From: Acidobacteriota bacterium
GTDB taxonomy: Bacteria; Actinomycetota; Acidimicrobiia; Spongiisociales; UBA11373
Length of the DNA: 64,000 nucleotides
Assembly: GCA_022571885.1 (NCBI GenBank)
Contig: JACZWZ010000001.1
Coordinates: forward strand, 156-64,155
Reading direction: 5' to 3'
Part shown: positions 15,457 through 61,665 of the stretch, piece after piece
How the letters are laid out: the number at the start of each line of letters is the position of its first letter
Numbering within the stretch: position 1 is the stretch's first letter
Notes under the pieces: generated by a model
Database searches by the model: none
What the model was told of the DNA's origin: nothing
What the model saw: the letters and a program-made list of their open reading frames with translations, nothing else
Position numbers and translations under genes: made by a program

Positions 15457-15830
15457 GGAAGTCACCAGTCTCCAGTCTCCAGTCTCCAGTCTCCAGTCAG
15501 AATTCAGATTCGGAGGGAGGCCATCCTGCTGAGTGGCTGACCAAAGAACTCCAGTCCCCACTTGAGAAGTCCCCGGTTTCCGGTCCCCAGTCGCTAGTCA
15601 GAATTCAGATTCGGAGAGAGGCCCCTCCTGATGACTGGCGGCTTAGAGGCCGCGCGGATAGGCGGGATGCGACCGCCGGTGCCTCGTGAGCCCTTGTGGA
15701 ATATCGCCCTGCGTGTGAAACATCCGTCCATGTTTCACCCAACCGCTGAGTCTCTTAGTACTGAAGTCTTGCTGGAGACTGGAGACTGACGACTGACGAC
15801 TGACGACTGACGACTGACGACTCCTCTACG
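15457..15830. repeat. heptamer tandem arrays as inverted arms ((CAGTCTC)x4 ... (GGAGACT)x2(GACGACT)x5) bounding about 270 nt with two 28-nt direct repeats (gtcagaattcagattcggagRgaggcc) and a 9-bp perfect hairpin (gtgaaacat ccgtcc atgtttcac)
   Basis: Read directly in the convergent tadC / UPF0182 intergenic region. Confidence 0.7.
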
Positions 15831-18789
15831 CGTTTTCTCCCGCCAGGGCTCCCTCGATCAACTCCCGGGCCTGGTCGATCAGCCGTTGTGCCTCAGCGAC
15901 CTGAGACTGATAGGTGGCGAGGTCGGCGTCGCGTAGTGCGGCATCTGCTCGGGTAAAGGCTGCATCCGCCCGGGCCAGCAGCTGTGACACCGCAGCAGTT
16001 ACATCCTCCGGCAATGGCTCCGTGGTCCCGTCGTCGGTGCCGTCATCGTCGACGATCGGACCCGCATCGCCGAACACTGCCTGGAGCGACTCGTCGAGGG
16101 TCGGTCGCATCACGATGCGATCGCCGAACACCACGATGACGAACTTCACCTCCGGTAGAGCTGCGATATCCGAAGCCGCCGCACTTCCCGCCGGGTCGGC
16201 AGACACATAGATCGGCTGCACGTACATGATCGACTCTGCGATCGGCACCACCAGCATGTTGCCCTGGATCACCTCGGACCCACCCTGGCTCAGCAGGCTG
16301 AACTCACGTGAGATATCGGGCTCCTGGTTGATCCGGGCACCGATCTGGCCGGGACCGTCTACAAAGGACTCGCGCGGCAACTCGAACGTGATCAGCCGTC
16401 CGTACTCATCCGGATCCGACTTCGCCACGATGAAGGCAACCATGTTTGGTCGAGTGGCGGCCGTAAACGGCTGCAGCAGCAAGTAGGAGAGATCGGTCTC
16501 ACCCGGAAGCTCCATCAGCAGGTAGTAGGGCACCATCGGTCGGTTTTCGGCCGGGAAGGACACTCGCTGTGCCTCGGAGCTGGTGGTCGACGGATCGCGG
16601 GCTATCTCCCAAGGGGCACCGTTGTTGAAGAACACCCGGGGGTCGGTGACGTGGTACTTGGTGTACACGTCGGACTGGACCCGGAACAGGTCTTCGGGAT
16701 AGCGGAGGTGGTTGAGGAGCTCCGGTGGCATCTCGTCGGCGTCGGAGAACAGCGACGGGAAAATACTCCGATAGGCCCGCACGATCGGATCGGTATCGTC
16801 GAAGAGGTAGAAAATGATCGTTCCATCGAAAGCATCGACGGTGGCCTTCACCGAATTCCGGATGTAGTTGAAGTCGCTGGGGAGCCCGGAGGCGACATTG
16901 AGCCGACCGGCAGCCGGGACACCACCGGCGGTGGACTGGGTGCTGTCGGCCGGCGTCGAATACGGGTACCGATCGGTCACCGTGTACATGTCCTGGACCC
17001 AGACAAGCTTCCCCTCGCTGCTGATCACCAGATACGGGTCGGTGTCGGCGGCCAGGAATGGTGCCGCCTTCTCGAGGCGGTCACGCAGGTTGCGCACCAT
17101 GAGCACCCTGCTGTCGCTGGTGATCTGACCCGAGATGAGGGTATTGATGTCGGCGAACCGGAGGGCGAACGCCGCCCTACGGAAGAACGAACCTATCTCC
17201 ACACCACCTTTACCGTCGTATGAGGTAAAGGCGAGCAACTCGCTCCCGTTGCCCTCGTCGGAGCTGGTCTCGATCGGGAAGTCGACCTCCTGCTCCTTGG
17301 TACCGACGACCACGAAGTCTGACGAAGCCACCGTTTCACCGAAGTAGATCCGTCCCTGGCTCACCTCGACGGTTGCCGGCACGCCCTCGTCAGGATTGAT
17401 GTCCTTCAGAATGAAGTCCGGCTGGCCCTGGGTCGTCACCGTGTTGGCCGGACTCAGCACGGCGCCGAACCCGTGGGTGTAGACCAGATGCTCGTTTACC
17501 CAGCCACCCCCGGGGATACCGGCGGTGTCGAGTTCGCGAGCGGCCAGCATCACCTGGGTCAGCTCACCATCCAGCATGTAGCGATCTACATCGACGTCAT
17601 CGAACTGATAGAACGGCTGCAGCTCCTGGAGCTGCCGATAGGTGGTGAGCAGCACCGACGGATCCCACAGCCGAATGTTGTCGATCGTCGGTGAATTGTT
17701 GGCGATATCTTCCGCATCGAGCGCATCGGAAGCTGCAAAGCCTTTGACTTCGACCGAATCGAGACCATATGCCGCGCGGGTGAATTCGATATTCCGGGTG
17801 ACAAACGGAAGCTCCTTGTTGATCTCGTCCGGCTGGACCGAAAAGCGCTGAACGGCAGCCGGCCAGATGCCGCCGAGCGCCACCGAAGTGACGAGCCACA
17901 GGCCGAAGGCCACTGCCGGCAGAGTCCACCCCCTGATCCGCGTATTCACCAGGAGCAAGATTGCCGCCACCACCGAAATCCCAATGAGCAGGTTGAGCGC
18001 AGGTAATTGGGCGTTGACATCGGTATGGGTCGCTCCGAATACGGCACCACGGGACGAATACAGCAGATCGAATCGGTCCAGCCAGTAGCCGGCGGCCTTG
18101 AAGAGAGCGATGATCGCCAGCAACACCGAGAGGTGAACCTTCACCCCGGCGGATACGCGCTGCACTCGCGGTTGTATCTGTACGCCGCCGTTGAGGTAAT
18201 GGATCGCGGCAATCACCAGGAAGGTGATCAGGAAGAACTGGAAGCCCCAACTAAAGAGGTCCCGATAGAACGGCACCGTGAAAACGTAGAAACCGACATC
18301 GTTGTTGAAGACCGGATCGACAATGCCAAACTTCTCGCTGTTCTGGAAGAGAAGCCAGTCCTCCCACCACGCCCCGGCACCGAGTCCGATGAGCAGACCA
18401 ATGAAACCGCTCACGGCGAGGCGGAACCGGAGACGCCGGGTCCGCACCCACTCCTGGAAACGCTCCACGATCTCCTCATCCGGGCTTCCGGCAACCAGGG
18501 ACTGGGGCGGCGAAAGCCGGTCGGCCACGACGAGGTTCAAGAACAGGAGCGAGAACGCCAGCAAGGTGGCGATGATGACGAGAATAATCCGAGTGAAGAT
18601 CAGCGTTCGCCAGACCGACCCGAACCCCAGCGAATCGAACCAGAGAAAATCGGTCCAGAAGTTCGCTATCCCGCGCAGCGACAGCAGCAGGATGAACAGA
18701 ACAACACCGGCCCCGATGAGCAGCCGCCGGCCGCGCGAGAAGGAACGGATCGGGATGGGAGTGGGTTCACGCTCAATCATTGAGGACAC
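15826..18789 (-). CDS. UPF0182-family large membrane protein (like M. tuberculosis Rv3193c)
   Basis: 987 aa; N-terminus RRLLIGAGVVLFILLLSLRGIANFWTDFLWFDSLGFGSVWRTLIFTRIIL matches UPF0182; multiple N-terminal TMs and a large extracytoplasmic domain. Confidence 0.75.
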   Translation of the reverse strand: MSSMIEREPTPIPIRSFSRGRRLLIGAGVVLFILLLSLRGIANFWTDFLWFDSLGFGSVWRTLIFTRIILVIIATLLAFSLLFLNLVVADRLSPPQSLVAGSPDEEIVERFQEWVRTRRLRFRLAVSGFIGLLIGLGAGAWWEDWLLFQNSEKFGIVDPVFNNDVGFYVFTVPFYRDLFSWGFQFFLITFLVIAAIHYLNGGVQIQPRVQRVSAGVKVHLSVLLAIIALFKAAGYWLDRFDLLYSSRGAVFGATHTDVNAQLPALNLLIGISVVAAILLLVNTRIRGWTLPAVAFGLWLVTSVALGGIWPAAVQRFSVQPDEINKELPFVTRNIEFTRAAYGLDSVEVKGFAASDALDAEDIANNSPTIDNIRLWDPSVLLTTYRQLQELQPFYQFDDVDVDRYMLDGELTQVMLAARELDTAGIPGGGWVNEHLVYTHGFGAVLSPANTVTTQGQPDFILKDINPDEGVPATVEVSQGRIYFGETVASSDFVVVGTKEQEVDFPIETSSDEGNGSELLAFTSYDGKGGVEIGSFFRRAAFALRFADINTLISGQITSDSRVLMVRNLRDRLEKAAPFLAADTDPYLVISSEGKLVWVQDMYTVTDRYPYSTPADSTQSTAGGVPAAGRLNVASGLPSDFNYIRNSVKATVDAFDGTIIFYLFDDTDPIVRAYRSIFPSLFSDADEMPPELLNHLRYPEDLFRVQSDVYTKYHVTDPRVFFNNGAPWEIARDPSTTSSEAQRVSFPAENRPMVPYYLLMELPGETDLSYLLLQPFTAATRPNMVAFIVAKSDPDEYGRLITFELPRESFVDGPGQIGARINQEPDISREFSLLSQGGSEVIQGNMLVVPIAESIMYVQPIYVSADPAGSAAASDIAALPEVKFVIVVFGDRIVMRPTLDESLQAVFGDAGPIVDDDGTDDGTTEPLPEDVTAAVSQLLARADAAFTRADAALRDADLATYQSQVAEAQRLIDQARELIEGALAGENA

Positions 18790-18954
18790 ATACTACGGGG
18801 CGTGCGCACCTTTCCCGACGGGCCAGCACCCGGCCTGATGCCGAGTGAGGTGGAGGGCGTATTTTCGAGGGTCGCGCCGAGTCGGCGTCGAGTATCCGGT
18901 ACCAGGCGTCGGACGTCTACAGGGGTCGACGCGCTTCGCAACCCTCGGTCGTCG

Positions 18955-19040
18955 TGCCGTCGAGTATCCAGTTCAGACTGGTTACTGGCTACTGGCTACT
19001 GGTTACTGGCTACTGGCTACTGGTTACTGGTTACTCTGCC
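18955..19040. repeat. (TACTGGY)x8 heptamer tandem array, preceded by two copies of gtcgagtatccRgt
   Basis: ggttactggctactggctactggttactggctactggctactggttactggttact read directly between the DivIVA-like stop and UPF0182 start. Confidence 0.8.
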
Positions 19041-20641
19041 GGGGTGATCGTGCAGGTACATGCCAGGCTGGCCGGCGGCACCGCCATCCCGTCCGGGGGC
19101 TCCCGCCCGGGTCGCCAGGAAAGGCCATCCGGTCCGGCACATTTCTCGCACAACGCGACATTCGACAGTGCCGTCACCTTGTCTATCCCACCGGAACGAA
19201 GGGCGGCCAGCAGACTGTCGTGGTAGGCCGCAGTGGCGATCGACCGCACCCACCGCTCTGCAGTGTCGTTGCGCCACGAGCGAAACACCCGCCCAATGGC
19301 TTCGGTCGCCAGCTCGGGACCACCAACATCTTCCAGCGACGCCGCCAACTGGCCGGCCAACGCCGCCGACATGGAGATCACCAGCCGACCGCCACGATTT
19401 CCGGGCTCAGACAGCGATCCGAACAGGCCGGCCAGCGGGCCGGCGGCGGTAGCACCGGCCGACCCTGCCTTGTGGATCAACGATTCGAGGACGAGCCCCA
19501 GCTCCCGGCCAATGTCGGGAGGGTGCGGTTCCCAACCCGAACTCCGTAGGCCGTCGAGCGCGACATTCTGCATCTCGACGATGAGCCGCTTCGTCTCACG
19601 TACTCCCGCGTTGATGATGGGCAGCAAGAGTTTGTCTTTCAGCTCAAAAGGGTCGGTTGGAAGCTGCTCCCCCACAGCAATCGTCTCGACTTCTCCGGTG
19701 GTGCGAAGCGCTTCGAACAGGGTGCCGACGTCATCCTCGGTCCCGAACACTTGAGCCGGGGGATCGACCCGAATCCGGATCGTCTCCGGATCCGACCTCA
19801 TTTCCTGTACCTCGGCCGCCAGCACATCGCTCAGATCTATGCCATCGGGTTCGAAGCCTTCGTCGGCCGGCTCGACATGGGCGGGCTTGGCCTGGGGCTC
19901 GTTGCCGAAGACCTTCACCGATTCGATCGAGCGCTGCAACCGGAGCCGCTCAATCTCCTCGAGCAGTTCCTCTCGACGAGCATCGGCGAGATCGGGAGGA
20001 ATCGACTCGCCGGAGGCCTCGAGGTGCTCGGGGCCGATGGCGCGATCGATTATCTGCTGTGCTATTTCGCGAGCCTGGTTGAGCCGACGATCGGCCTCGT
20101 ATCGGGCCTGTCGGATCAAGTCGCTTGCTTCGCGCTCGGAGCCGGAGATGTGGCGATGCGAATCCTTCTCCGCCTGAGCGCGAATCAGAAGGGCATCGTC
20201 CTTGCCGGCGCTGACGACCCGTTCCGCTTCGACCAATGCCGCGTCGAGCACATCCATGCCGGTCTCCCAGGCATCGCGGCGAAGATCGAAGGCCTGGCCC
20301 TCGGCCTCGGCGACCGCACCGGTAGCGGCCGCGGTCGATTCGACATCGATACGTTTGGCCTCTTCCTGAGACCTGGTGCGCATACCCTCGGCGGCCTGCT
20401 GGGCAGAAGACAGAATCTCGCCTACTTCGAGACCGACCGCACCCAATTCACGACCAAGGAATTCGAGTCCGCCGGATGCTTCGACGGTCGCTCTCAATTC
20501 CTCGTATCTATCTAGAAGGATCTGCCAGCGGTCCCGCGCCTCGGAGTGCAAGGCATCGATGACCCGTTTGTCGTAACCCCGCCGGGAAGAAGGTACGCCA
20601 CGCGCCGTCAGGTAATCGGGACCGATATCGTCGTCGGCCAT
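19031..20641 (-). CDS. DivIVA-domain coiled-coil protein
   Basis: MADDDIGPDYLTARGVPSSRRGYDKRVIDALHSEARDRW matches the DivIVA N-terminal domain; long charged coiled-coil region. Start taken at internal ATG (20641) rather than 20680. Confidence 0.55.
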   Translation of the reverse strand: MADDDIGPDYLTARGVPSSRRGYDKRVIDALHSEARDRWQILLDRYEELRATVEASGGLEFLGRELGAVGLEVGEILSSAQQAAEGMRTRSQEEAKRIDVESTAAATGAVAEAEGQAFDLRRDAWETGMDVLDAALVEAERVVSAGKDDALLIRAQAEKDSHRHISGSEREASDLIRQARYEADRRLNQAREIAQQIIDRAIGPEHLEASGESIPPDLADARREELLEEIERLRLQRSIESVKVFGNEPQAKPAHVEPADEGFEPDGIDLSDVLAAEVQEMRSDPETIRIRVDPPAQVFGTEDDVGTLFEALRTTGEVETIAVGEQLPTDPFELKDKLLLPIINAGVRETKRLIVEMQNVALDGLRSSGWEPHPPDIGRELGLVLESLIHKAGSAGATAAGPLAGLFGSLSEPGNRGGRLVISMSAALAGQLAASLEDVGGPELATEAIGRVFRSWRNDTAERWVRSIATAAYHDSLLAALRSGGIDKVTALSNVALCEKCAGPDGLSWRPGREPPDGMAVPPASLACTCTITPAE

Positions 20642-21992: not shown

Positions 21993-22859
21993 ATGAGCCG
22001 TATAAGCCGCACACTCGAACTCGCCGGATCATCCTGGCGAGTCCTCAAAGCCGACAAGGAACTGGTGCTCCTTCCTCTTCTGTCACTGATCGCAACGGTT
22101 GCCGTGGCCGTTTCGTTCCTGTGGCCGATCGTCAGCAGCTGCACCGAAACCATCGGATCAAAGAACGCCTGTGAGCTCGGTGGCGTCGACTACGTGATCC
22201 TCGCAGTCGCCTATCTCACTCTCGCCTTCATCACGATCTTCTTCAATGCAGCCCTCGTCCACGCCGCCAATGAGCGAATGGATGGCGGAGATCCCACGGT
22301 CGGCAGCGCCATCAGGGGAGCGTTGGGCAAGATCCACCGAATCCTGCCGTGGGCGATCGTCTCGGCGACGGTTTCGGTGATCCTCCGCAGCCTCGAGCAG
22401 AGGGCCGGCCTGGTGGGACGTATCGTGATCGGGTTCATCGGGTTGGCCTGGTCGCTGGTCACCTTCCTCATCGTCCCGGTGCTGGTCATCGAAGACATCG
22501 GAGTATTCGACGCCGTAAAACGCTCGGGAGCGTTGTTCAAGCGCACCTGGGGAGAGAACATGGCAGCACAGGTCGGCTTCGGACTCCTCGGAATCCTGGC
22601 TGCATTGCCGGGAATCGCAATCATCGTTCTCGGCTTCAACGCAGGCGGACCGGCCGCCGTGACCGCGATCGCCATCGGAATGGCGTGGATTCTGGCGTCA
22701 CTTTTGGTGCTATCCGCTCTCAATGGGATCTTCCAAACGGCTCTCTACCGGCATGCCACCGGTGTGGGAACCGGGGCGTTCGATGGGAATTTGACGACGG
22801 CGTTTGCGACGAAGACGCGGCGCGGATTCGGATCGACCCCCCGAGGGTTCGGAGGATAG
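21993..22859 (+). CDS. hypothetical polytopic membrane protein
   Basis: Six or more hydrophobic segments; no catalytic motif recognised. Confidence 0.5.
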   Translation: MSRISRTLELAGSSWRVLKADKELVLLPLLSLIATVAVAVSFLWPIVSSCTETIGSKNACELGGVDYVILAVAYLTLAFITIFFNAALVHAANERMDGGDPTVGSAIRGALGKIHRILPWAIVSATVSVILRSLEQRAGLVGRIVIGFIGLAWSLVTFLIVPVLVIEDIGVFDAVKRSGALFKRTWGENMAAQVGFGLLGILAALPGIAIIVLGFNAGGPAAVTAIAIGMAWILASLLVLSALNGIFQTALYRHATGVGTGAFDGNLTTAFATKTRRGFGSTPRGFGG

Positions 22860-22860
22860 G

Positions 22861-22925
22861 GGTTAGGTGTTAGGGATTAGGCGTTAGGAAGAATTTCTAA
22901 GACCTAATACCCAATACCTAACGCC
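22861..22925. repeat. TTAGG-heptamer inverted-arm palindrome (ggttaggtgttagggattaggcgttagg aagaatttct aagacctaatacccaatacctaacgcc)
   Basis: Read directly between convergent genes (membrane protein + / bioY -). Confidence 0.8.
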
Positions 22926-23493
22926 TGCCTACCGCCTTCCAGGCGGTAGGCAATGCCACCCCGGCCAGAGCTACCTTGACCAGATCGCCGATGATGAACG
23001 GCACCATGCCGAGTTCCATCGCCTCGGTGGTCCCGACTCCCACGCTGTGCGCCAGCCAGGTCACTCCGAACAGATAGATCACCGCGGTCCCGGCCAGGAA
23101 CGCAGGTATGGCGGTGGCGATGCTGCGGTCCTGCTCCCGCTCGGCCAGGTAGCCGATCAAGGCGGCGGCGGCGATGAACCCCACCAGATAGCCGCCGGTG
23201 GCGCCGGTGACCACCTCCCAGCCGCCGTTGGCTCCCGAATAGAACGGCAGACCTATGGCACCGAGCCCGACGTAGAGAGCCTGGGAGGCGAAGCCGGCAC
23301 GCCAACCCAACGCGGCACCGGTGAGAAGTACCGCAAAGGTCTGGCCGGTGATCGGCACCGGCGTAAACCAGAGCGGGAACTCGATCTGGGCCATGAGGGC
23401 GGTGAAGAGCGCAAAACCTACAACAAGGACCGCAGTGACGTTGCGGGTCTGGGGCAGAACGCGGGAGCTGAGTACGGCGGGGGCGGTGGTCAT
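22918..23493 (-). CDS. bioY: biotin transporter BioY (ECF S-component)
   Basis: 191 aa, 5-6 TM, ...VPITGQTFAVLLTGAALGWRAG...GYLVGFIAAA typical BioY. Confidence 0.8.
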   Translation of the reverse strand: MTTAPAVLSSRVLPQTRNVTAVLVVGFALFTALMAQIEFPLWFTPVPITGQTFAVLLTGAALGWRAGFASQALYVGLGAIGLPFYSGANGGWEVVTGATGGYLVGFIAAAALIGYLAEREQDRSIATAIPAFLAGTAVIYLFGVTWLAHSVGVGTTEAMELGMVPFIIGDLVKVALAGVALPTAWKAVGRR

Positions 23494-33934: not shown

Positions 33935-34020
33935 TTCTGACTGGAGACTGGTGACTGGTGACTGAGGACTGGCGACCGGACTCCTTCGGGAGTCGGGCAT
34001 CGGGCATCGGGGTTACGCTG
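33935..34020. repeat. heptamer tandem repeats (GACTGGT/GGAGACT-type, then GGGCATC x2)
   Basis: ctgactggagactggtgactggtgactgaggactggcgacc...gggcatcgggcatcggg read directly. Confidence 0.7.
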
Positions 34021-34505: not shown

Positions 34506-34555
34506 CCATTTAGGTATTAGGTATTAGGCGTTAGGTATTAGGTATCTGGGCTTGG
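34505..34555. repeat. (TTAGGTA)x5 tandem array followed by a dispersed 30-nt motif (acccacggctcttcg...ctcatc) at 34577-34612
   Basis: ccatttaggtattaggtattaggcgttaggtattaggtatctggg read directly. Confidence 0.8.
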
Positions 34556-34734: not shown

Positions 34735-35964
34735 GTGGACATGATCACCGTGATCGCCCTTGCGGTCGCCGTCGTCTCGACCGGGCTCGCCCTTCTCTTC
34801 TTCAACAGGGCAAGAGGGCTGAGTCACGCTGTGGATGCCGCCCGACGACGCATCGGCGGCAACCCACCCAAGCGATCGTGGCACCGCGAGGCGGCTCTGG
34901 AGGAAGCGCTGCAGACGCTCGAACGCTCGACCTCCCATGCCCAAAGGGAGCGAGCGCAGCTGGCAGGAGCGCTACAAGCGGCTCGGCTCGGAATCATCAT
35001 CACCGACGACCACGGAATGGTGACCTTCGCCAATCAGCCCGCCGATCAGTACCTGGGGGCACAACAAGGCGAGGCCATCGCAGAAGCAAGGCTCAGGGAG
35101 GCCATCGAACAGGCGATTCTCAACCGAACCACGATCTCGACCGAGGTCGAATCAGGCGCGCCGATTGGACGCTCTGTCGAAATAGTGGTCGTGCCTCTCG
35201 ACTTCGGGGTGGAGAGCGTCGGTGCCGTCACCTACTTGGAGGACATCACCGAACGGCGTCGAATGAGTGAGACACGGCGCGATTTCATCGCCAACGTGGG
35301 TCACCAACTCACCACGCCGCTGTCTGCTCTGGCGGCGCTGTGCGAGACGGTTGCCGACAGTCTTGACGACGCTGAAGTGGCACGACGGCTGGCGTCCCGC
35401 CTCGGACAGGAATCAACTCGCCTGGGTGCAATGGTGGACAGCATCCTCCAGTTGAGCCAGGCCGAAGCCCAGAAGGCACGAACCCAAGCTGTTCAGGCCT
35501 CAGAGCTGACAGAATCTGCAGCCGACGAGATGGGCCGAGCCGTCACCGAACGCGGGGCTGAACTCATCGTGGAAGCGGCACCGCCCGGCGTCTGCATCGC
35601 CGGGGATGAACGACAGCTTCGCTCATTGCTTGTCGGTCTCATCGACAACGCCGCCAAGTTCTCGAACTTGCCAGAGGGAAGTCCGCCGTCCCGTATCTGG
35701 CTTCGGACCTCGGTCCAGGGCGAGTCGGTGGTCTTCACCGTGCAAGATGAGGGAATCGGAATAGCCAAGGATCAAACCGATCGCATCTTCGAGCGGTTCT
35801 ATCGGGTCGATCGTTCCGAGCCCGGCACCGGACTCGGCCTCAGCATCGCGCGCCACATAGCCCGCGACCACGGCGGTGACGTAACCGTGATCAGCAAGCC
35901 GCAGGAGGGATCGATCTTTACCGTGACACTGCCGCTGTGGCGGGAGGAAGGGGTTAGGCGTTAG
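34735..35964 (+). CDS. sensor histidine kinase (TM - PAS-like - HisKA - HATPase), no adjacent response regulator
   Basis: FIANVGHQLTTPLSAL H-box; NLPEGSPPSRIWL...QDEGIGI...GTGLGLSIARHIARDHGGDV N/G boxes. Confidence 0.8.
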   Translation: MDMITVIALAVAVVSTGLALLFFNRARGLSHAVDAARRRIGGNPPKRSWHREAALEEALQTLERSTSHAQRERAQLAGALQAARLGIIITDDHGMVTFANQPADQYLGAQQGEAIAEARLREAIEQAILNRTTISTEVESGAPIGRSVEIVVVPLDFGVESVGAVTYLEDITERRRMSETRRDFIANVGHQLTTPLSALAALCETVADSLDDAEVARRLASRLGQESTRLGAMVDSILQLSQAEAQKARTQAVQASELTESAADEMGRAVTERGAELIVEAAPPGVCIAGDERQLRSLLVGLIDNAAKFSNLPEGSPPSRIWLRTSVQGESVVFTVQDEGIGIAKDQTDRIFERFYRVDRSEPGTGLGLSIARHIARDHGGDVTVISKPQEGSIFTVTLPLWREEGVRR

Positions 35965-36020
35965 GCGTTAGGAAGACTCTGCCTAGTACCTAATCCCTAA
36001 TGCCTAATTCCTTCCTACCT
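35945..36020. repeat. TTAGG inverted-arm palindrome (gggttaggcgttaggcgttagg aagactctg cctagtacctaatccctaatgcctaattcc)
   Basis: Read directly between convergent genes; overlaps the last codons of the kinase. Confidence 0.8.
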
Positions 36021-37879: not shown

Positions 37880-38818
37880 TCACTCCACGGCAAGCGCGTC
37901 GATGAACCCCTGCACCCGCTCCCGGGTGATGAACCGCATCCGGGGCTCGCGGCGTTCCCGATCGTAGATTTCGAACGGAGAAAACTTCTCTGTGATGAGC
38001 AAGCCGCGATCGGCACCCGAGGAGATGAAATCGACCACGAAGCGACCGACCTGACTCTCCGGCAACTCCGGATGATCGAGGCCGACCTGACACACGGTTC
38101 GCAAGAAGATTCGCTGCCCGAACCGGACCGCATCCATGGTATCGGCCGAACGCTCGGTGATGGCGTACCCCGAAAGACGCATCACTCCGAGTACCAGGAC
38201 GCAGGCATCGACCGAATCGGGATCCAATCCTTGGGCACGAATACCGGCCTCGACGGCCTGCGACAGCTTGATCGTCGGAACCAGGGGACTCAGCGTCTCG
38301 GCCGTAGCCGTGTTGGCCAGTCCCGGCGGACTCTGCGGTAGGTCGGAGATTCTGTCAAATGGATCAAAACCGGGACGCGATGCGTGAGGAAGCAACTCGG
38401 GGACCATCGGAGGAGGGAGAGTCCCGGGGGTGTCGAGCTCGACTCTGCCGATCTCGATCCAATCTCCATCGCGCCTACCGAATGCGATGACCCGGTTGAC
38501 CTCATCCAGCGGGAGGGTGCGCCGCTTCTCTCGAACAACCTCCACCGCCTCTGCGATGAGGAGATCCGCCAGCACCGAATCGACCTTGCCGGCGGCAATC
38601 GGAACCTCGAAATAGACCAGGGCCGAACCTTCCGAGACGTGGAAGTCCGCAACCTGAGGGCCCGACGGTTTGGTCTCGACGGACACCGATCCGGTGTCGG
38701 CGCCACCGGAAGAATGGCTTCGGCGAGCGAAGAAGAGCGCGGCGACACCGACGAGCACGGCCACAGCCACAACGATCACGACTACCAAGGCAACCACTCC
38801 ATTCGGCGACTGGTCCAT
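37880..38818 (-). CDS. hypothetical membrane-anchored protein (N-terminal TM)
   Basis: VVALVVVIVVAVAVLVGVAALFF TM then soluble domain; no family recognised. Confidence 0.5.
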   Translation of the reverse strand: MDQSPNGVVALVVVIVVAVAVLVGVAALFFARRSHSSGGADTGSVSVETKPSGPQVADFHVSEGSALVYFEVPIAAGKVDSVLADLLIAEAVEVVREKRRTLPLDEVNRVIAFGRRDGDWIEIGRVELDTPGTLPPPMVPELLPHASRPGFDPFDRISDLPQSPPGLANTATAETLSPLVPTIKLSQAVEAGIRAQGLDPDSVDACVLVLGVMRLSGYAITERSADTMDAVRFGQRIFLRTVCQVGLDHPELPESQVGRFVVDFISSGADRGLLITEKFSPFEIYDRERREPRMRFITRERVQGFIDALAVE

Positions 38819-38856
38819 TGTACGAGAGAGCGATTCGGTGGGTTACTGGCCGTGGG

Positions 38857-38886
38857 CAATTCACAATTCGCAATTCGCAATTCGAC
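38857..38886. repeat. (CAATTCG/CAATTCA)x4 heptamer array
   Basis: caattcacaattcgcaattcgcaattcgac read directly. Confidence 0.8.
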
Positions 38887-38915
38887 TCGACGATGGGCGC
38901 TTGGCCATCCGTGCC

Positions 38916-39108
38916 CCGGCGCCGAGCCCTACGAAACCCTCCGCGCAGCAGCAATCTGACGCTCCTTACGCACCCGGCGCTGCACCCACGGCTCTTCGGC
39001 TAACACCTCATCACAATGTCGGCCGGGTCCCTACCCAGCCGACCGGCGCCGAGCCCTACGAAACCTTCCGCGCAGCAGCAATCTGACGCTCCTTACGCAC
39101 CCGGCGCC
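38916..39108. repeat. 65-nt direct duplication of the whiB 3' terminus (38916-38980 and 39043-39108, 1 mismatch), 62 nt apart
   Basis: ccggcgccgagccctacgaaaccYtccgcgcagcagcaatctgacgctccttacgcacccggcgc occurs twice; the upstream copy overlaps the real whiB C-terminus and stop. The spacer contains the dispersed motif acccacggctcttcggctaacacctcatcac also seen at 34577. Confidence 0.75.
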
Positions 39109-39337
39109 TTTCGCGTTCGGACATCCCGCCCCAGATGCCGAACTTCTCGCCGGTCGTGATTGCGAATTCCAGGCATTCCACCCGAACCTGACACTCGCGA
39201 CAGATCCCCTTGGCCGTCCTCGTCGAGGCGCCGCGCTCGGGGAAAAAGAGATTGGCATTGGCCCCCGTGCAGTTCGCCTTGTCCTGCCACTCGAGGTCGT
39301 AGCCGGTGGCTAAAGCTTGCTTGAGTTGCTCGAGCAT
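39056..39337 (-). CDS. whiB: WhiB-family transcriptional regulator (WhiB1-like)
   Basis: 93 aa; CTGANANLFFPERG...CRECQVRVECLEFA...GIWGG four-Cys WhiB signature and C-terminal basic tail. Confidence 0.85.
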   Translation of the reverse strand: MLEQLKQALATGYDLEWQDKANCTGANANLFFPERGASTRTAKGICRECQVRVECLEFAITTGEKFGIWGGMSERERRRVRKERQIAAARKVS

Positions 39338-43059: not shown

Positions 43060-43286
43060 TCAGCATTCTCGCGCGTTGCAGAGCACAGAGCGAAGGCCGT
43101 AAGACCCATGAATTCGTTTCCCGTTCCTGACCTGATTTCGTCACACCTGATGCGACGCGCCGGCCGCCATCCGGACGAGCCTTCGTCGAGTCCCCCGATT
43201 CCCGAATGCATCCCGACCATCCGCAGAATTCGGGAAAGGGGAAACGGGAAACGAATTCAGCCCAATCAGCGAATACTCTTCCCCAG

Positions 43287-44165
43287 ATGCGTTCCCTCCC
43301 CCCTGTCATGCCGGCTCTGATCACTCCGTTCACCCGTACCGGTGAACTCGACCTCGAGGCACACCGCCACAACGTCGCACGAATGTGGGATCTCGGGTTG
43401 CGAGGACACCTCATCGCAGGCAGCACCGGGGAAGGCCCCTACCTCGAATCCGGAGAGCGGCGCATCCTCATCGCCGCGGCTCGCGAGGTCTCTCCGCGGT
43501 CCTTCCTCCTGTGCGGGATTCACGCTGAAACGGTTCGCTCTGCGATCGCGGCGATGCACGAGGCCGGTGAAGGCGGCGCCGATGCGGCCCTTGTGGTGAC
43601 CCCGACGACGCTCGTTCGCCACCGGCCCGACCTGATCGAGGCATTCTTCGTCGAGGTCACCGAGGCGGCACAGTTGCCGGTGCTCCTCTACTCGGTGCCG
43701 AAGGTGACTGGTGTCGAACTCGCCGAGTCGAGCGTCGCCTCACTCTCGTCGCATCCACGCATCGTGGGGATGAAGGATTCGGGAGGTGATCCGATCCGTT
43801 CATCCCGCCTGGTGAGAGCAATACCAGACCGTTTCAAATTGTACGTAGGTGCCACCCCCGCCATCAGTCTGTCGATCGCCGGCGGAGCTCACGGCGCCAT
43901 AACCGCCAGCACCAACTACGCCCCGCGGCTGGTTGGCGACACAGTGATCGCAGCGCGTCGATCGTTGCGCGCGGCCGAAACTCTCCAATCCAGGCTTTCG
44001 GTACTGTCGATCGCAATCGAGGGTCACGGCATCCCGGGCGTCAAGTACGCCGCCGGTCGTGCCGGCTTGGCGGCGGGCCACAGCCGCGCTCCCCTCGACT
44101 CACCTTCGCCTGAAGTGAAGCGCTTCGTCCGTCGTGTCATGGCGACGGCGGAGTTGGGGGATTAG
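43287..44165 (+). CDS. dihydrodipicolinate synthase/N-acetylneuraminate lyase family protein (DapA-like)
   Basis: LITPFTRTGELDLEAHRHNV...GSTGEGPYLESGER...GMKDSGGD (Schiff-base Lys region). Start at 43287 or 43308 preferred over 43206. Confidence 0.65.
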   Translation: MRSLPPVMPALITPFTRTGELDLEAHRHNVARMWDLGLRGHLIAGSTGEGPYLESGERRILIAAAREVSPRSFLLCGIHAETVRSAIAAMHEAGEGGADAALVVTPTTLVRHRPDLIEAFFVEVTEAAQLPVLLYSVPKVTGVELAESSVASLSSHPRIVGMKDSGGDPIRSSRLVRAIPDRFKLYVGATPAISLSIAGGAHGAITASTNYAPRLVGDTVIAARRSLRAAETLQSRLSVLSIAIEGHGIPGVKYAAGRAGLAAGHSRAPLDSPSPEVKRFVRRVMATAELGD

Positions 44166-44650
44166 GGATTAGCAATACGCCAGTGCGTAGGCAGGTCCCG
44201 GAGTCGGAGGACCCCCCTCCAACGACCTACGGTCGTTGACTCCCCCTCAAGGGTGTCGGGTTGCGCGATAGGGCCGACGGTTCTGTTCTGAATACTCTCC
44301 CCTTTGGGGGGAGTCAGCGAGCGAAGCGAGCTGGTGGGGGGTACCTGGTCTTCGTCTCCGTCAGGCCAACACGTCTTGTATGTCGTAGTGGCCTTTCACC
44401 GGGTGGTTGCGCCAGGTTGGGTAGCCACTCGATCATGCGTCTTGTGGGTCAGTTCGCCGAGTCGGTGTGTGGTCAGATAGGCAGCGGGATTGCCGCGACT
44501 TGGTGAGTCCCCCCACCAATCGGCCTGCGGCCGATTGACTCCCCCCAGAGGGGAGAGTGATCCAACCAACCGTCGGGCACTAACCGCGACAGATCACCCT
44601 CAAGGGGGGAGTGGTTCCCTATTGCTAATCGCTAATTGCTAATTGCGGGA
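44155..44650. mobile_element. copy A of a repeated structured element of about 500 bp (MITE-like): outer GATTAG/GCAAT arms, 14-bp TIR-like ends (ccccctcaagggtg ... caccctcaaggggg, core 44242-44608), internal GC hairpins
   Basis: Aligns by eye at roughly 90-95% identity with 56745-57290; no conserved ORF between the copies. Confidence 0.7.
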
Positions 44651-44695
44651 GGCGGCGCAGCCGCCGACCTCTTGCGAACAAAGAGGTAGTCTCGG

Positions 44696-45106: not shown

Positions 45107-45128
45107 TCGACCGGCTGTCGAGAATTGA

Positions 45129-45156: not shown

Positions 45157-45176
45157 TTCGCGTTCGAGAGATCCGG

Positions 45177-45449: not shown

Positions 45450-45657
45450 ACTTCCACTCCTCCTCGGGGAATAACATCGGTGTAACTCTAACAACACCAG
45501 TTGACGAAATACTAGACATTCGCCAGAAAAACCCTTGAATTTCAACAAGTCGCCGACCAATCGGTTCGATCGACCCCAGATCAGTCACCATCCGGTTCGG
45601 CTCCGGGACCACCCATCGACTCGTGTGTAGAGTGACGCCGCATCGACTCCTGGAGCA

Positions 45658-47594: not shown

Positions 47595-47659
47595 TTGACC
47601 TCCAGTGGTGTGTTGATCTGACGTTAGTGAGGCATTGCAATGAGAAATCAGGGGCGAAA

Positions 47660-47725
47660 GCACCCAGTACCCAGTACCTCGGAGGCTCCTTCTACTGGTT
47701 ACTGGCTACTGGCTACTGGCTACCC
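47660..47725. repeat. (CCAGTAC)x2 ... (TACTGGY)x5 heptamer array, same family as 18955-19040
   Basis: cagtacccagtacc...ctactggttactggctactggctactggctaccc read directly between the mdh start and icd stop. Confidence 0.8.
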
Positions 47726-47733
47726 TTACCGGT

Positions 47734-52204: not shown

Positions 52205-52310
52205 AGGGGTCAAGAGATCGTTTCCCGTTCCCAGTTCCCCGTTTCCCGAATCTCGGCGCGACCTGATTCGGGAAACGGGACACGGGAAGCGGGAAACGAT
52301 CAGTTGGCCG
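52205..52310. repeat. GTTTCCC/GGGAAAC heptamer inverted-arm palindrome with spacer
   Basis: tttcccgttcccagttccccgtttcccgaatctcggcgcgacctgattcgggaaacgggacacgggaagcgggaaac read directly; related GGGAAAC repeats at 43228-43260. Confidence 0.75.
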
Positions 52311-54534: not shown

Positions 54535-54589
54535 GGCGGGAAGTATACGGAGGGGTCCACCGGTGAATCTCAGTGGTGTTATTTTGAAA

Positions 54590-54665
54590 GGGAGTTAGGG
54601 CTAGGAGTTAGGAACCAGGAAGAGACCGTCTACCTAATACCTAATGCCTAATACCTAACTCCTAC
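54590..54665. repeat. TTAGG inverted-arm palindrome (gggagttagggctaggagttagg ... cctaatacctaatgcctaatacctaactcc)
   Basis: Read directly between the pcrA start and the cheA-like stop. Confidence 0.8.
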
Positions 54666-56744: not shown

Positions 56745-57290
56745 GTTAGCGATAAGTGGTAGCAATACGCAATGCGCCCAGCAGGCCACTTGCAGGCAAC
56801 GACCGCGTTGGAGTTCTCGGAGTCGGAGGGGCCCCTCCAATCGAGCTCCGCTCGATTGACTCCCCCTCGAGGGTGTCGGGTTGCGCGATAGGGCCGACGG
56901 TTCTGTTCTGAACACTCTCCCCTTTGGGGGGAGTCAGCGAGCGAAGCGAGCTGGTGGGGGGTACCCGGTCTTCGTCTCCGTCAGGCCAACACGTCGTGTA
57001 TGTCGTAATGGCCTTTCACCGGGTGGTCGCGCCAGGTTTGTGTAGCCACTCGAACATCCGTCTTGTGGGTCAGCTCGCCGAGCCGGTGTGCGTCCAATAG
57101 GCAGCGGGATTGCCGCGACTTGGTGAGTCCCCCCACCAATCGGCCTGCGGCCGATTGACTCCCCCCAGAGGGGAGAGTGATCCAACCAACCGTCGGGCAC
57201 CAACCGCGACAGATCACCCTCGAGGGGGGAGTGGTTCCTTATTGCTACTCGCTAATCGCCAATCGCGGAAGGCGCCGACGCATCTCTGAC
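56745..57290. mobile_element. copy B of the repeated structured element of about 500 bp (perfect 14-bp TIRs ccccctcgagggtg 56862-56875 / caccctcgaggggg 57215-57228), followed by (GGACTAA)x4 heptamers
   Basis: Same order of blocks as copy A; stem-loops differ by compensatory changes (A: aacgacc tac ggtcgtt; B: aatcgagc tcc gctcgatt). Confidence 0.7.
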
Positions 57291-57336
57291 CTGAGGACTA
57301 AGGACTAACGACTAAGGACTAACAACTGGCGAAGCC

Positions 57337-58881
57337 TCACTCCCACTCGATGGTGGCGGGCGGCTTCGAAGAGATGTCGTAGGCGACCCGGTTGATCCCT
57401 TCGACCTCGTTGATTATCCGTGACGAGATTCTCTCCAACAGATCGTGGGGCAACCGAGCCCAATCGGCCGTCATCGCGTCTTCGCTGGTGACGGCACGCA
57501 CGATGAGCGGGTAGGCGTAGGTGCGAATATCGCCCTGGACCCCGACCGTCTTGATTGCCGGCAGCACTCCGAATGCCTGCCAGATCTCCCGGTACAACCC
57601 GGCCCGCCGGATCTCTTCGAGGATGATGGTATCGGCGCGCCGTAGAATCTCGAGTCGCTCCCGAGTCACCTCTCCGATGATCCTCACAGCCAGACCGGGA
57701 CCTGGGAAGGGCTGCCGCCACACGATGTCGGGAGGCAGGCCGAGCTCCTCACCTATCGCACGTACCTCGTCCTTGAACAGATCGCGCAGCGGCTCCACCA
57801 GCTCGAAATCCATATCGTCGGGCAGTCCGCCGACGTTGTGATGACTCTTGATCTTGGCTGCATCCTTGGTCCCGGACTCGATGATGTCGGGATAGAGCGT
57901 CCCCTGCACCAAGTACTTGGCATCGTCGACATCGGCCGCGACATCCTCGAACACTCTGATAAAGGTTTCGCCGATGATCTTGCGCTTCTCCTCGGGGTCG
58001 GTCACACCCGTCAACGCGCTGAGAAACCGATCGGCGGCGCGGACGTGGATCAGGTCGATATCGAGCGTGGCACGAAAGGCCGCTTCCACCTGGTCTGCCT
58101 CACCCTGGCGCAGCAGGCCATGATCCACGAACACGCAGGTGAGCCTGTCTCCGATCGCTCGGTGAACCAGTGCCGCGGCAACGGCGGAATCGACGCCACC
58201 CGAGAGACCACAAATCACCCGACCCGCCGGGGCTGCCTCACGGATCCAACTCACCGCCTGCTCGATTATCCCGACGTGGGTCCACGTCGGTTTGGCCCCG
58301 CACACTTCATAGAGGAACCGTTGCAGCACCTCCTGGCCTCGCGGGGTGTGAGCCACCTCCGGGTGGAACTGCACGCCGCACATTTTGCGCTCGAGATCCT
58401 CCATCGCTGCCACCGGTGAAACCGCAGTCGATGCCGTCACCGTGAAACCCGGCGGAGCCTTCACGACCGCGTCGCGGTGGCTCATCCAGACCTCTTGATG
58501 ACCGGGCAGCTCGGCGAACAACACCGACTCGGGCGCGATCTCCAACTCGGTCCTTCCATACTCGGCTACCTCGACCCGCGCCACGTCACCGCCGAGGGCG
58601 CTCGCCAACACCTGATGGCCGTAACAGATGCCGAGAATCGGAACCCCCAAATCCAGGATCGCCGGATCGATCTCATAGGCGTCTTCGGCATACACCGATG
58701 CCGGGCCACCAGACAGGATGATCCCGACCGGCGACGCCGATCTCACCTGATCGGCCGTGACATCACGGGGCACGATCACCGAGTACACATGCGCCTGACG
58801 AACCCTGCGAGCGATCAGTTGGGCGTATTGCGCCCCGAAGTCGACGACGAGAACCCTGTCGAAGCCCTCGTCCATCGGCAT
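57337..58881 (-). CDS. guaA: GMP synthase (glutamine-hydrolysing)
   Basis: GATase (ILGICYGHQ), ATP-PPase SGGVDS motif, C-terminal dimerisation domain; 514 aa. Confidence 0.9.
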
Positions 58882-60038: not shown

Positions 60039-60100
60039 TTTTGTCCCGTGTGTGTGGTCGTGGGGAGAGTAGCCAGGCGAAGGATGGTGGTCGGGGAACA

Positions 60101-60551
60101 GGAGTTAGGTATTAGGAATTAGGCGTTAGGTGCCGGACCGCCAATGCTTGATCAGTGAACGCAACATCCTCTTGACCTCACCGATGTAACCAAGTGTGAC
60201 GTCGATCGGATCCTTGGTGTGACCCAGTCGGGCGGCAAGATCCAGCTGATATTCCAACTCGCTCGCCGATCCAGCCGCGATCGAAAGCAGCCGAGCAGCA
60301 TCCGGATCCGTGCTGCGTCCGGCCGCTTCTGCGATATTCGAAGCTACAGACACGGCAGCTCTCCTCATTTGAGCGACCAGCCCGAACCGTTCGTCAACGG
60401 GAAACTCGCCGGTGATCCGATAGATATCTAGGACCACCTCATCGGCCCGCTGCCACACCGTCAGTGACCGATAGTCGCGCATGACTCAACCGGTACACCG
60501 AAAGTCCAAGCGAAACAAGCCCCCTGCTAGTCCTACCTAATCCCTAATCCC
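60101..60551. mobile_element. TTAGG inverted-repeat cassette (left ggagttaggtattaggaattaggcgttagg; right ctagtcctacctaatccctaatccct) enclosing the four-helix-bundle gene
   Basis: Read directly; the cargo gene's TAA stop (60126-60128, minus strand) lies inside the left TTAGG unit; the right arm abuts the trpS stop. Confidence 0.6.
60126..60482 (-). CDS. four-helix-bundle protein (TIGR02436 / 23S rRNA intervening-sequence protein family, Avd-like fold)
   Basis: MRDYRSLTVWQRADEVVLDIYRITGEFPVDERFGLVAQMRRAAVSVASNIAEAAGR...ASELEYQLDLAARLGH matches the family consensus (KVWQKA...LxxQLRRAAxSIxxNIAEG...GSxxElEyhL). Confidence 0.85.
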   Translation of the reverse strand: MRDYRSLTVWQRADEVVLDIYRITGEFPVDERFGLVAQMRRAAVSVASNIAEAAGRSTDPDAARLLSIAAGSASELEYQLDLAARLGHTKDPIDVTLGYIGEVKRMLRSLIKHWRSGT

Positions 60552-60557
60552 TGAAGC

Positions 60558-61547: not shown

Positions 61548-61549
61548 AA

Positions 61550-61665
61550 GTTAGTCACCAATCAACCAGTCACCAGTCAGACAGCAGATAGCAGACAACA
61601 GACAAGAGACAACAGACAGGTTCTCCAATCTGCAATCTGCAATCTGCACCCAGCACCCAGCACGC
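61550..61665. repeat. mixed heptamer tandem arrays ((CCAGTCA)x2, (CAGACAA)-like x5, (CAATCTG)x3, (CCCAGCA)x2)
   Basis: gtcaccagtcaccagtcagacagcagatagcagacaacagacaagagacaacagacagg...caatctgcaatctgcaatctgcacccagcacccagcac read directly. Confidence 0.8.

Follow-up and report, generated by a model that had tools for sequence, protein, structure and literature searches.

The window analysed here is a 64-kb stretch of DNA from contig JACZWZ010000001.1, of which ~86% is coding, with a GC content of 61–67%. Its genes include sdhB, dapA, icd, uvrD/pcrA, cheA, guaA and a trpS-like gene, and its intergenic regions carry tandem arrays of 7-nt units, which were mapped between 15.4 and 61.7 kb. About 28 such period-7 arrays, with 2–8 copies each and more than ten unit families, are spread over 17 intergenic sites. 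They are heptanucleotide simple-sequence arrays of the same kind as STRRs (short tandemly repeated repetitive sequences), the GGGAATC repeats of Xanthomonas and the long simple sequence repeats (LSSRs), located here in an uncultured subclade of the Acidimicrobiia. The host has 62% GC. Its GMP synthase GuaA (57337..58881, minus strand) is 74–76% identical to proteins from metagenome-assembled genomes (MAGs) of Acidimicrobiia, and WhiB, UPF0182 and Scy/DivIVA-like proteins are encoded in the window. The GuaA identity together with WhiB and UPF0182 agrees with the high-GC, actinobacterial-type host proposed in the initial annotation of this DNA. Our analysis covers the window and a few related contigs.

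Tandem Repeats Finder returned 64 rows for the window, including 33 with a period of 7 and seven further rows that are 14- or 21-nt readings of the same period-7 arrays. A strict detector found 11 period-7 arrays, compared with 0 expected from 20 third-order Markov simulations, and no arrays at periods 5 and 8–15 in the window; a more tolerant scan found 26 period-7 regions and none at periods 8–12. As in LSSRs, defined by tandem units of 5–11 nt, the arrays exceed the expectation from composition. They sum up to 1,061 nt, or 1.66% of the window sequence and 12% of the DNA between its genes, and the unit TTAGGNN is present at six window sites. All sites listed in the initial annotation were found by Tandem Repeats Finder and by reading of the sequence, with the same units and within ~20 nt of where they had been placed. 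In addition, more than 20 contigs of the same species, 98.7–100% identical to the window, were obtained through exact-protein look-ups (ENA, NCBI GCA_022561315.1 and Logan). The same arrays recur in at least 20 of these independent contigs and are polymorphic in clean unit lengths. Since they are present in independent assemblies of the same species, an assembly artefact, which would have undermined the initial annotation, is excluded.

The position of the arrays was compared with gene calls corrected from the called genes on strain contigs and from Pfam, counting intergenic regions of at least 30 nt. None of the 26 array regions lies inside a gene, and overlaps between arrays and gene ends do not exceed 19 nt. 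This exclusion from coding DNA fits the 7-nt step, which would shift the reading frame. An array is located within 16 nt of 15 of the 31 gene 3' ends, compared with 2 of the 31 gene 5' ends (p = 4e-4), and the 15 stop codons lie −19 to +16 nt from an array. Several genes owe their stop codon to a repeat unit, such as TAG at 22857 and the TAG at 35962 that ends the histidine-kinase gene within the 35946..36013 arrays. The stop codons of the convergent DUF6159 and bioY genes are both inside the arrays at 22845..22937. Arrays occupy 12 of 24 tandem, 3 of 7 convergent and 2 of 8 divergent intergenic regions, and convergent and tandem regions together are not significantly preferred over divergent ones (15/31 vs 2/8, p = 0.43); the 3' bias shows solely in how far the arrays lie from stop codons. 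The placement at gene or operon 3' ends suggested by the initial annotation is thereby upheld, whereas its preference for convergent gene pairs is not. A role of the arrays as stop signals in all six frames was considered and rejected; it holds for TTAGGNN/CCTAANN and fails for AGTCTCC, GGGAAAC, CAATTCG and CAGACAA.

About half of the arrays form inverted pairs of one family. Seven sites harbor short-loop pairs, which fold into periodic stems of 24–44 bp with a folding energy (dG) of −30 to −68 kcal/mol and z-scores down to −9.6, confirming the long imperfect hairpins of array, spacer and reverse-complement array described initially. In three further pairs the arms are 270–440 nt apart with cargo between them and still pair strongly. 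Among 11 pairs of neighbouring arrays, all 6–7 same-family pairs are inverted. Particularly stable folds are formed by 52205–52310 (dG −68, z −9.6), 22840–22940 (dG −53, z −8.2), 35940–36020 (dG −46, z −7.9) and 54580–54670 (dG −35, z −6.2). Of the long-loop pairs, the AGTCTCC left arm forms a duplex with 15765–15830 (dG −68 to −74), and the arms at 44158..44177 and 44620..44648 are 94% complementary. As in intrinsic terminators, a stable stem-loop lies directly past the stop codon. Canonical terminators with a U-tract are not above chance in the window (10 vs 12.1 expected; 9 vs 11.6 expected). Among known RNA families, only one tRNA was found in the window at the gathering threshold, and scans of 44100–45700 and 61500–63000 at relaxed thresholds gave only sub-threshold matches.

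The AGTCTCC/GGAGACT arms enclose ~270 nt of cargo with an internal duplication. This cargo (15503–15770) contains a ~96-nt duplication, in which an older, degenerate array precedes AGTCAGAATTCAGATTCGGAGRGAGGCC (at 15494 and 15590), together with GC-rich hairpins, and no open reading frame (ORF) was found in it. Three ideas on the arrays were discarded. An excess of G·U pairs on the sense strand (34 vs 12), taken as a signal of selection at the RNA level, was withdrawn after re-annotation, because the second arm of one hairpin belongs to a duplicated 470-nt element and another hairpin is located in a divergent region, where 'sense' is undefined. The motif AGGAAGA, shared at the start of TTAGG hairpin loops and suggestive of copies of one dispersed element, reads as a degenerate unit. 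Single arrays as C-rich Rho-loading sites were dropped, the unit composition of the sense strand being inconsistent.

Table 1 Arrays and associated features of the window, followed by the heptamer flanks of genes for the intervening-sequence protein (IVP) at further loci (L numbers denote fetched loci)
Feature	Coordinates	Context
AGTCTCC x5.6, left arm of long-range inverted pair	15458..15502	6 nt past stop of T2SSF-operon gene 14543..15451(+)
GGAGACT x2 + GACTGAC x5.6, right arm of AGTCTCC pair	15771..15825	abuts stop of UPF0182 gene 15826..18780(-)
ACTGGYT x8.4, single array, 21-nt super-period	18975..19038	overlaps stop of Scy-like gene 19031..20641(-)
TTAGGNN x6 / NNCCTAA x4 hairpin	22845..22937	between convergent DUF6159 and bioY genes
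GACTGGW x6 + TCGGGCA x2.7	33937..34015	31 nt upstream of redoxin gene start; 7-nt strain polymorphism
TTAGGTA x5.1, single array	34507..34546	1 nt past redoxin stop; 14-nt strain polymorphism
GTTAGGC x3.4 / CCTAATN x3.4 hairpin	35946..36013	between convergent genes; +7-nt polymorphism on one arm
CAATTCG x4.1, single array	38855..38887	36 nt upstream of start of 37880..38818(-); identical in 4 strains
TTAGTCC x4.6 / GACTAAN x3.6 hairpin, GACAGCC x3 in loop	39491..39599	16 nt past sdhB stop; dG -42
GGGAAAC x3.3 in loop of GAATTCG/CGAATTC stem	43230..43255	divergent sdhC-dapA region; no gene 3' end facing
GGGATTA x2 + GATTAGC/GCAATAC units, left arm	44158..44177	over dapA stop; flanks ~440-nt structured element
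ATTGCTA x3.7, right arm round ~440-nt structured element	44620..44648	+7-nt strain polymorphism
ACCCAGT x2.4 / CTACTGG x4.6 hairpin	47657..47726	7 nt past icd stop; -7-nt strain polymorphism
GTTTCCC x4.3 / GGGAAAC x4.3 hairpin	52218..52298	40 nt past uvrD/pcrA stop
TTAGGNN x4 / TACCTAA x4 hairpin	54590..54664	overlaps cheA stop
GCTAATC x3.3 (end of second ~470-nt element copy) + AGGACTA x4.1	57242..57327	9 nt past guaA stop
TTAGGNN x4.5, 3' arm of IVP cassette	60100..60132	overlaps IVP gene stop
PF05635/TIGR02436 'four helix bundle' gene (23S rRNA intervening-sequence protein, Avd-like), cargo of IVP cassette	60126..60482(-)	
CCTAATC x2.4, 5' arm of IVP cassette	60531..60557	abuts trpS/tyrS-like gene stop
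Four adjoining arrays AGTCACC x3.7, CAGACAA x5.9, CAATCTG x3.9, GCACCCA x2.6	61553..61667	fill divergent region
IVP flanks GGGATTA / CCCTAAT		L226-L229, related Acidimicrobiia
IVP flanks CATCAGA / TCTGAGA		L230, Acidimicrobiia MAG
GGGGCGA upstream of IVP gene		L235, relative with same trpS site; contig ends 21 nt past ORF, only upstream array visible
IVP flanks TTAGGTA / CCTAATA		L231, 619-kb contig
IVP flanks AGCTATC / GATAGCT		L232/L233, Thiocapsa
IVP flanks TTAGCNN / NNGCTAA		L234, Desulfobacterales MAG
AAAAGCT x15 upstream, AAAAGCC x12 downstream, direct		L236, Pseudanabaena
IVP flanks TTAGCNN / NNGCTAA		L237, Calothrix PCC 7716
IVP flanks GACAGGT x35 / CTGTCAC x4		L238, Anabaena sp. 90
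IVP flanks GGGAGTA x8 / CCCTACT x5		L239, Nostoc edaphicum
IVP flanks GGAGATA / TATCTCC		L241, Picosynechococcus
Inverted GACAGAR arms		L240, Azospirillum lipoferum, true 23S rRNA intervening sequence

Comparison of strains shows that replication slippage lengthens, shortens and turns over the arrays in steps of 7 nt. Of 16 distinct indel events between strains that are 98.7–99.9% identical, 8 are located in the arrays, which make up only 1.66% of the sequence. Six of these array indels are exact unit multiples (7, 7, 7, 7, 14 and ~91 nt): the 7-nt events are located at 33946, 35953, 44621 and 47717, the 14-nt event at 34517, and the ~91-nt event after dapA, where 1 versus 14 copies of CAATACG represent the largest difference in copy number seen. 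Copy number is variable between strains. Moreover, contigs of independent assemblies often end within arrays, and one strain contig begins within the ACTGGYT array at 18975..19038.

Whole hairpins are exchanged as well. At three gene ends another strain has other sequence where the window has its heptamer hairpin; in two of these cases the replacing segment is non-homologous and contains a different heptamer family. After icd, strain L092 (GCA_022561315.1) has a CCCGATC/TCGGGCA hairpin (dG −51) in place of the ACCCAGT/CTACTGG hairpin of the window; after uvrD, a non-homologous segment is present in strain L096, in which CTGCAAG x4 forms a single array next to an ordinary GC hairpin; and after the DUF6159 gene, strain contig L224 has a GATTAGC-type array/element instead of the TTAGG hairpin. 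Across genera, heptamer arrays of three unrelated families are found 2–10 nt downstream of the guaA stop. The array is single in the window, and paired hairpins are present 2–3 nt past the stop in the relatives L001 and L002. At icd, and at guaA in L001 and L002, structure and position persist and sequence does not.

Two of the arrays enclose a ~470-nt structured element, which is present in the window in two copies (44185–44654 and 56805–57274) that are 92% identical. Located between inverted heptamer arms, this element has a strongly folded RNA (dG −256, z −8.1); its 78-aa ORF has no Pfam match, and no Rfam family matched it. Strain L092 lacks the element at the dapA-SCP2 site and has (CAATACG) x14 there (L092 13480–13720, corresponding to window 44150–44700), while a partial third copy abuts the DUF6159 stop in strain contig L224. 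The element looks like a mobile or recombining intergenic module. Synteny of L092 is also broken upstream of cheA (window ~56773; L092 1290–1520), with an amidohydrolase gene replacing guaBA. This break falls on a (CAATACG)n array and at the 470-nt element's edge, suggesting that arrays or elements act as recombination break points. A separate repeat was detected by BLAST against strain contigs at 38916–39108, a direct repeat of ~65–75 nt with ~118 nt spacing. It was recorded as upstream of whiB (39056..39337, minus strand) and lies around the whiB 3' end and in the region downstream of whiB.

One inverted pair of the window contains a protein-coding gene. The product of this gene matches PF05635 and TIGR02436, and its closest solved structure is that of Xanthomonas XCC0516 (PDB 2GSC). 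Avd-like proteins of this type were originally discovered within intervening sequences of 23S rRNA. The arms of the IVP cassette (60100–60557; 476-nt cassette) pair with a dG of −33.6 and close its minimum free energy fold, so that terminal inverted repeats form a stem enclosing a PF05635 ORF, as in the intervening sequences (IVSs) of 23S rRNA. The cassette sits between the trpS-like gene and guaB and not in a 23S rRNA helix (9, 25 or 45), and the window contains no rRNA. The four arrays at 61553..61667 separate the tRNA-synthetase gene from the divergent Nfu/HEAT gene.

Twelve further IVP loci from five phyla were fetched with their flanking DNA. Including the window, adjacent heptamer arrays are present at 13 of 13 loci, and on both sides in 12 of them. 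In 11 of the 12 further loci the arrays flank the ORF on both sides, and the arms are inverted copies of one family, save in Pseudanabaena, where they are direct. According to a tally from the array lists of six array-poor loci, 12 arrays lie within ~150 nt of the IVP ORF, compared with at most 5 in the remaining ~36 kb. Long heptamer arrays also flank the IVP genes of Nostocales plasmids, and among 72,556 plasmids 25 carry an IVP homologue, 21 of these plasmids being cyanobacterial and most of the latter from Nostocales, the taxa of STRRs. At the orthologous trpS-IVP-guaB site, the arm family changes between lineages and the gene is flipped in some; in L002 an ORF-less heptamer hairpin takes its place. 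In the published Xanthomonas repeat table, a GGGAATC x4 array overlaps the annotated start of XCC0516 (PMC4692102), and the Coxiella IVS contains 2–3 strain-variable GACAGAT heptamers and is cut by RNase III at the first repeat (PMC4990558). The two main papers on heptamer repeats do not mention the IVP protein.

IVP genes are also found inside operons on the cyanobacterial plasmids L236, L238 and L241, in L232 (Thiocapsa) and in L239 (Nostoc), between the gene pairs cas6/cas4 (type I-D), cas10/cmr3 (type III-B), cbbQ/cbbO and nrdB/nrdA; the Xanthomonas gene adjoins bccP (XCC0517). Such insertion into operons is the pattern expected of a selfish intergenic insert. With tblastn, no IVP homologue was found beside arrays in any other fetched locus, and none in 414 kb round 80 metagenomic hairpins, which indicates that the protein is not needed in cis. 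Given that most arrays are not next to an IVP gene, any role of the protein would be exerted in trans, or the cassettes may simply insert into existing hairpin loops.

Arrays are not confined to this species, contrary to what would have restricted the initial observation to the window. The relative L002 harbors eight period-7 arrays in 16.8 kb, and L001 and L003–L005 carry arrays too. Relatives with GuaA at least 74% identical (L001–L005) have arrays, L006–L009 (73–74% GuaA identity) have none, and more distant loci have 0–1. The arrays are dense in the closest relatives and absent or rare in distant Acidimicrobiia and other Actinomycetota, pointing to a trait of the subclade; no literature pairing Acidimicrobiia with intergenic tandem repeats was found. 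At 3943–4049 the Acidimicrobiia MAG L230 has (GACATCG) x14, with an inverted array of the TCTGAGA type after it at the end of the contig, indicating that much longer arrays than those of the window occur in this clade. In the array-poor Acidimicrobiia L006–L009 and L025, a conserved motif of approximately TGCCGATAAGGA...GGCCAGGGAA is located ~40–110 nt downstream of guaA, and may be a promoter or a small RNA element.

Beyond the Acidimicrobiia, a metagenome scan for TTAGGNN x3 followed by CCTAANN x2 matched at least 120 contigs, 80 loci of which were analysed and span 30–70% GC. No ORF of at least 150 aa contains any of these 80 TTAGG-type hairpins. Flanking ORFs with their 3' end towards the hairpin abut it (median −3 nt), and for those with their 5' end towards it the median distance is 33 nt. 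Neither the loops nor the flanks of the 80 hairpins are related to each other. Sharing the architecture of the window, the metagenomic hairpins show that such structures are widespread and not peculiar to this lineage. Pairs of (TTTAGGG)n/(CCCTAAA)n are frequent among the metagenomic inverted heptamer pairs, on contigs of 30–60% GC (L101–L180); in the window this plant-type telomere unit, the nearest telomere look-alike, is absent. The initial annotation had noted that TTAGG is the insect telomere unit, a remark that is beside the point because the repeat period here is 7. Filters for telomere-motif contamination could misfire on bacterial heptamer hairpins, and the reverse.

STRRs are said to go back to a description of tandem heptanucleotides in Calothrix/Nostocales by Mazel et al. 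in 1990. The resemblance to STRRs claimed initially holds in that the window heptamers are likewise tandem, multi-family and non-coding. However, STRRs are not the only precedent, the closest one being the GGGAATC repeat of Xanthomonas, and an excess of such repeats in high-GC genomes had already been reported. The canonical STRR units CCCCAGT, TTGGTCA and CAACAGT do not occur in tandem in the window, and the STRR-related cores ACTGG and AGTCCCC are present. In contrast to STRRs, the window arrays belong to an actinobacterium and not to a (heterocyst-forming) cyanobacterium, and cyanobacterial arrays are often much longer. STRRs are also reported from inside the gene for RNase P RNA in heterocyst-forming cyanobacteria (Vioque 1997), and paired inverted arrays are reported as rare in Nostoc.

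The Xanthomonas GGGAATC repeats are 89–93% intergenic, with a mean distance of 28 nt to the upstream ORF, whose stop they often overlap (Rehm et al. 2015, PMC4692102). They include 70–75 convergent inverted pairs with stem-loop potential, and from species to species they keep their positions but differ in length and sequence (PMC4692102). The window arrays are similar in being located in a high-GC genome, intergenic, at stop codons and often in inverted pairs (7 short-loop and 3 long-loop pairs at 17 sites). They differ in that Xanthomonas, from another phylum, has one dominant G-rich unit read as forming G-quadruplexes, whereas the window has more than ten families. G3 runs occur in the window only in the GGGAAAC and GGGATTA arrays, a minority, and do not match the single G-rich unit with four or more G3 tracts that gives the Xanthomonas type its G-quadruplex potential.

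Heptamers dominate in genomes rich in 5–11-nt repeats, and heptamer-rich genomes tend to be high in GC and included three Actinobacteria, with polymerase slippage as the proposed origin (Mrázek, Guo & Shah 2007, as summarised in PMC4679880 and PMC4692102). Like heptanucleotide LSSRs, the window arrays are confined to non-coding DNA and change by whole units. Unlike that survey, which as summarised there is statistical and leaves aside inverted pairing, stop-codon adjacency and strain turnover, the window shows these features. TAACTGA repeats lie just upstream of start codons in Beggiatoaceae (PMC4679880), and GGGACCG x4 and MTYCTGA x5 arrays are known from Geobacter metallireducens (PMC2700814) and (GATAGRA)n from Chloroflexus (PMC6749651). 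Like the window arrays, these are dispersed tandem heptamers (2–6 copies), mostly intergenic and several in opposite-strand pairs, although one or two units predominate in each of those genomes. The IVP cassette of the window resembles the 23S rRNA IVSs with an S23p/IVP ORF of Coxiella and Leptospira (PMC4990558), being an inverted-repeat stem round a PF05635 ORF. It differs in its location between protein-coding genes, and most heptamer stems of the window have no ORF.

The window stems also belong beside other structures found at gene ends. Repetitive extragenic palindromic (REP) sequences, their composite bacterial interspersed mosaic elements (BIMEs) and the U-tract-less 'I-shaped' terminators of actinobacteria are imperfect palindromes just downstream of genes and are thought to end or protect transcripts. 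They can act bidirectionally between convergent genes and are hot spots of rearrangement; termination by I-shaped stems is disputed. REPs form one conserved sequence family tied to the RAYT transposase and are not tandem 7-mers. The window arrays are neither REP/BIME elements nor MITEs (miniature inverted-repeat transposable elements), having many unrelated unit families, no common flanks and no transposase-like gene in the window; the 470-nt element is a candidate to be considered apart from them.

On balance, we favor the view that the stems work in RNA, as stem-loops where transcripts end, providing a termination signal or a barrier to exonucleases as well as sites for RNase III, a probable function deduced here from sequence and structure. 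Slippage would build stem-loops of inverted 7-nt arrays at the ends of transcripts, and these stems, devoid of a U-tract and often usable in both directions, would end transcription or block 3' exonucleases. The long double-stranded RNA stems would also serve as RNase III processing sites, as the heptamer stems of 23S rRNA IVSs do; this part is suggested by the precedents of the inverted GACAGAR arms of Azospirillum and of the Coxiella GACAGAT arrays. Single unpaired arrays and the two promoter-region sites are probably slippage products without a partner arm, or with none yet. The ends of guaA, icd and uvrD keep arrays while the unit family changes, in support of this view, as are the unit-step slippage, the exclusion from genes, the bias to 3' ends, the stable stems and the like pattern of the Xanthomonas repeats. 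Several observations weigh against it. About one third of the arrays are single, and shuffled sequence folds better than they do (z +0.8 to +1.8); there is no U-tract 3' of the stems, as no T runs follow them and no array matches the terminator consensus; and ordinary perfect GC hairpins are present at a few other gene ends in the genome. Two sites (43231 and 61553–61667) are located in divergent promoter regions with no gene 3' end facing them, and polymorphisms in arm length are uncompensated on the opposite arm. An unbiased set of 28 metagenomic hairpins shows no difference in stability between sense and antisense strands (14:13), with 74 vs 82 G·U pairs, and owing to this lack of asymmetry selection at the RNA level is not separable from selection at the DNA level. 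Arrays are also absent from all eight intergenic regions in the first 15.4 kb, compared with 17 of 31 later (p = 0.006). Those eight regions total ~2.3 kb, and the GC content of the first 4 kb is higher (0.67); the array-free stretch 1–15400 could represent an island, a case of local heterogeneity or another class of expression.

Several of the same observations would also be expected if the arrays were a neutral by-product, in which a lineage-specific slippage bias in replication or repair makes 7-nt arrays wherever selection allows and the arrays do nothing. Here 3' flanks would be favored as the least constrained DNA, and inverted pairs would arise by template switching at existing terminator hairpins. 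The dominance of unit indels in the between-strain spectrum, the existence of single unstructured arrays, the absent strand asymmetry, the uncompensated changes in arm length, the sharp phylogenetic boundary between L001–L005 and L006–L009 and the polymerase-slippage proposal of Mrázek, as cited in PMC4679880, are all in line with it. We nevertheless regard it as doubtful, since inversion of all 6–7 same-family pairs among 11 is far above the expectation for independent arrays from more than ten families, unrelated-family hairpins occupy the same place after icd and at the guaA stop in L001/L002, arrays abut stop codons rather than spreading over the intergenic space, and heptamer arrays are found at all 13 IVP loci, on both sides in 12. 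The turnover after uvrD counts here with a qualification, as the L096 replacement is only a single array beside a GC hairpin. Another explanation starts from the IVP loci and holds that the arrays are an IVS-like family of elements, an inverted-array stem with or without cargo (the IVP gene or the 470-nt element), which spreads or is exchanged between gene ends, the short-loop hairpins being ORF-less members or remnants, as MITEs relate to full transposons. It accounts for IVP genes between arrays in the window and at 11 of 12 further loci in five phyla, one of them a true 23S rRNA IVS, for the GGGAATC x4 array over the annotated start of XCC0516, for the concentration of arrays near IVP ORFs at array-poor loci (12, against at most 5 elsewhere in ~36 kb), for the flipping of the trpS-IVP-guaB gene between lineages and its replacement by an ORF-less hairpin in L002, for whole-cassette replacement and the presence or absence of the 470-nt element between strains, and for the same unit families at several loci and in several genera. 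Yet no transposase, target-site duplication or conserved terminal sequence was found, more than ten unit families speak against one recognition site, an IVP gene is present at only 1 of 17 window sites with no homologue in the 414 kb round the 80 metagenomic hairpins, slippage alone accounts for the length changes, and the association could reflect IVP cassettes inserting into hairpin loops already there; we judge it unlikely. A role as binding sites for a regulator that recognises specific DNA or RNA sequences, which has been put forward for Beggiatoa TAACTGA and the Geobacter elements (PMC4679880, PMC2700814), might be suggested by the few recurring families (TTAGGNN at six sites) and by the two sites in promoter/5'-UTR regions (43231, 61553–61667), but it is very improbable given more than ten unrelated families in 64 kb, a unit family that changes between strains and genera at a given gene end, freely drifting copy number and the location of most sites after the stops of functionally unrelated genes. 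Finally, assembly artefact or eukaryotic telomere-like contamination can be dismissed almost entirely: the TTAGG core is telomere-like and short-read assemblies break at the arrays, but at least 20 independent contigs carry the same arrays with flanks 98.7–100% identical, the arrays sit among actinobacterial genes and provide stop codons to some of them, and the period is 7, not 5 or 6.

The IVP loci raise a further point. The ORF-less heptamer hairpins of STRRs, Xanthomonas GGGAATC and the window and the ORF-carrying 23S IVS stems could be one kind of element, with the Avd-like protein as a trans factor, a proposal that we put forward as speculative and of low probability. In this case, a stem of inverted 7-nt arrays can carry a TIGR02436/PF05635 gene, and the much more frequent ORF-less hairpins at gene ends may be its cargo-free relatives. 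Avd-like protein has been solved with five chains per entry, and typical arrays have 4–5 units.

Since 1990, tandem heptamers have come to notice repeatedly in cyanobacteria, Xanthomonas, Burkholderia, Geobacter, Beggiatoa and Chloroflexus, and their function and their period of 7 are unexplained. The window adds a natural population of more than 20 strain contigs in which array dynamics can be read directly, with unit-step slippage, whole-hairpin swaps of family at the same gene end and repeat-supplied stop codons all visible. In practice, the breaking of assemblies at the arrays calls for caution over MAG quality and over contamination filters based on telomere motifs. The link between heptamers and IVP, present in five phyla and in the published Xanthomonas table, makes the old question experimentally approachable. 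If the one-element proposal is true, the Avd-like protein would recognise, maintain or spread heptamer-periodic stems as the trans factor missing for so long, and this would explain the period of 7.

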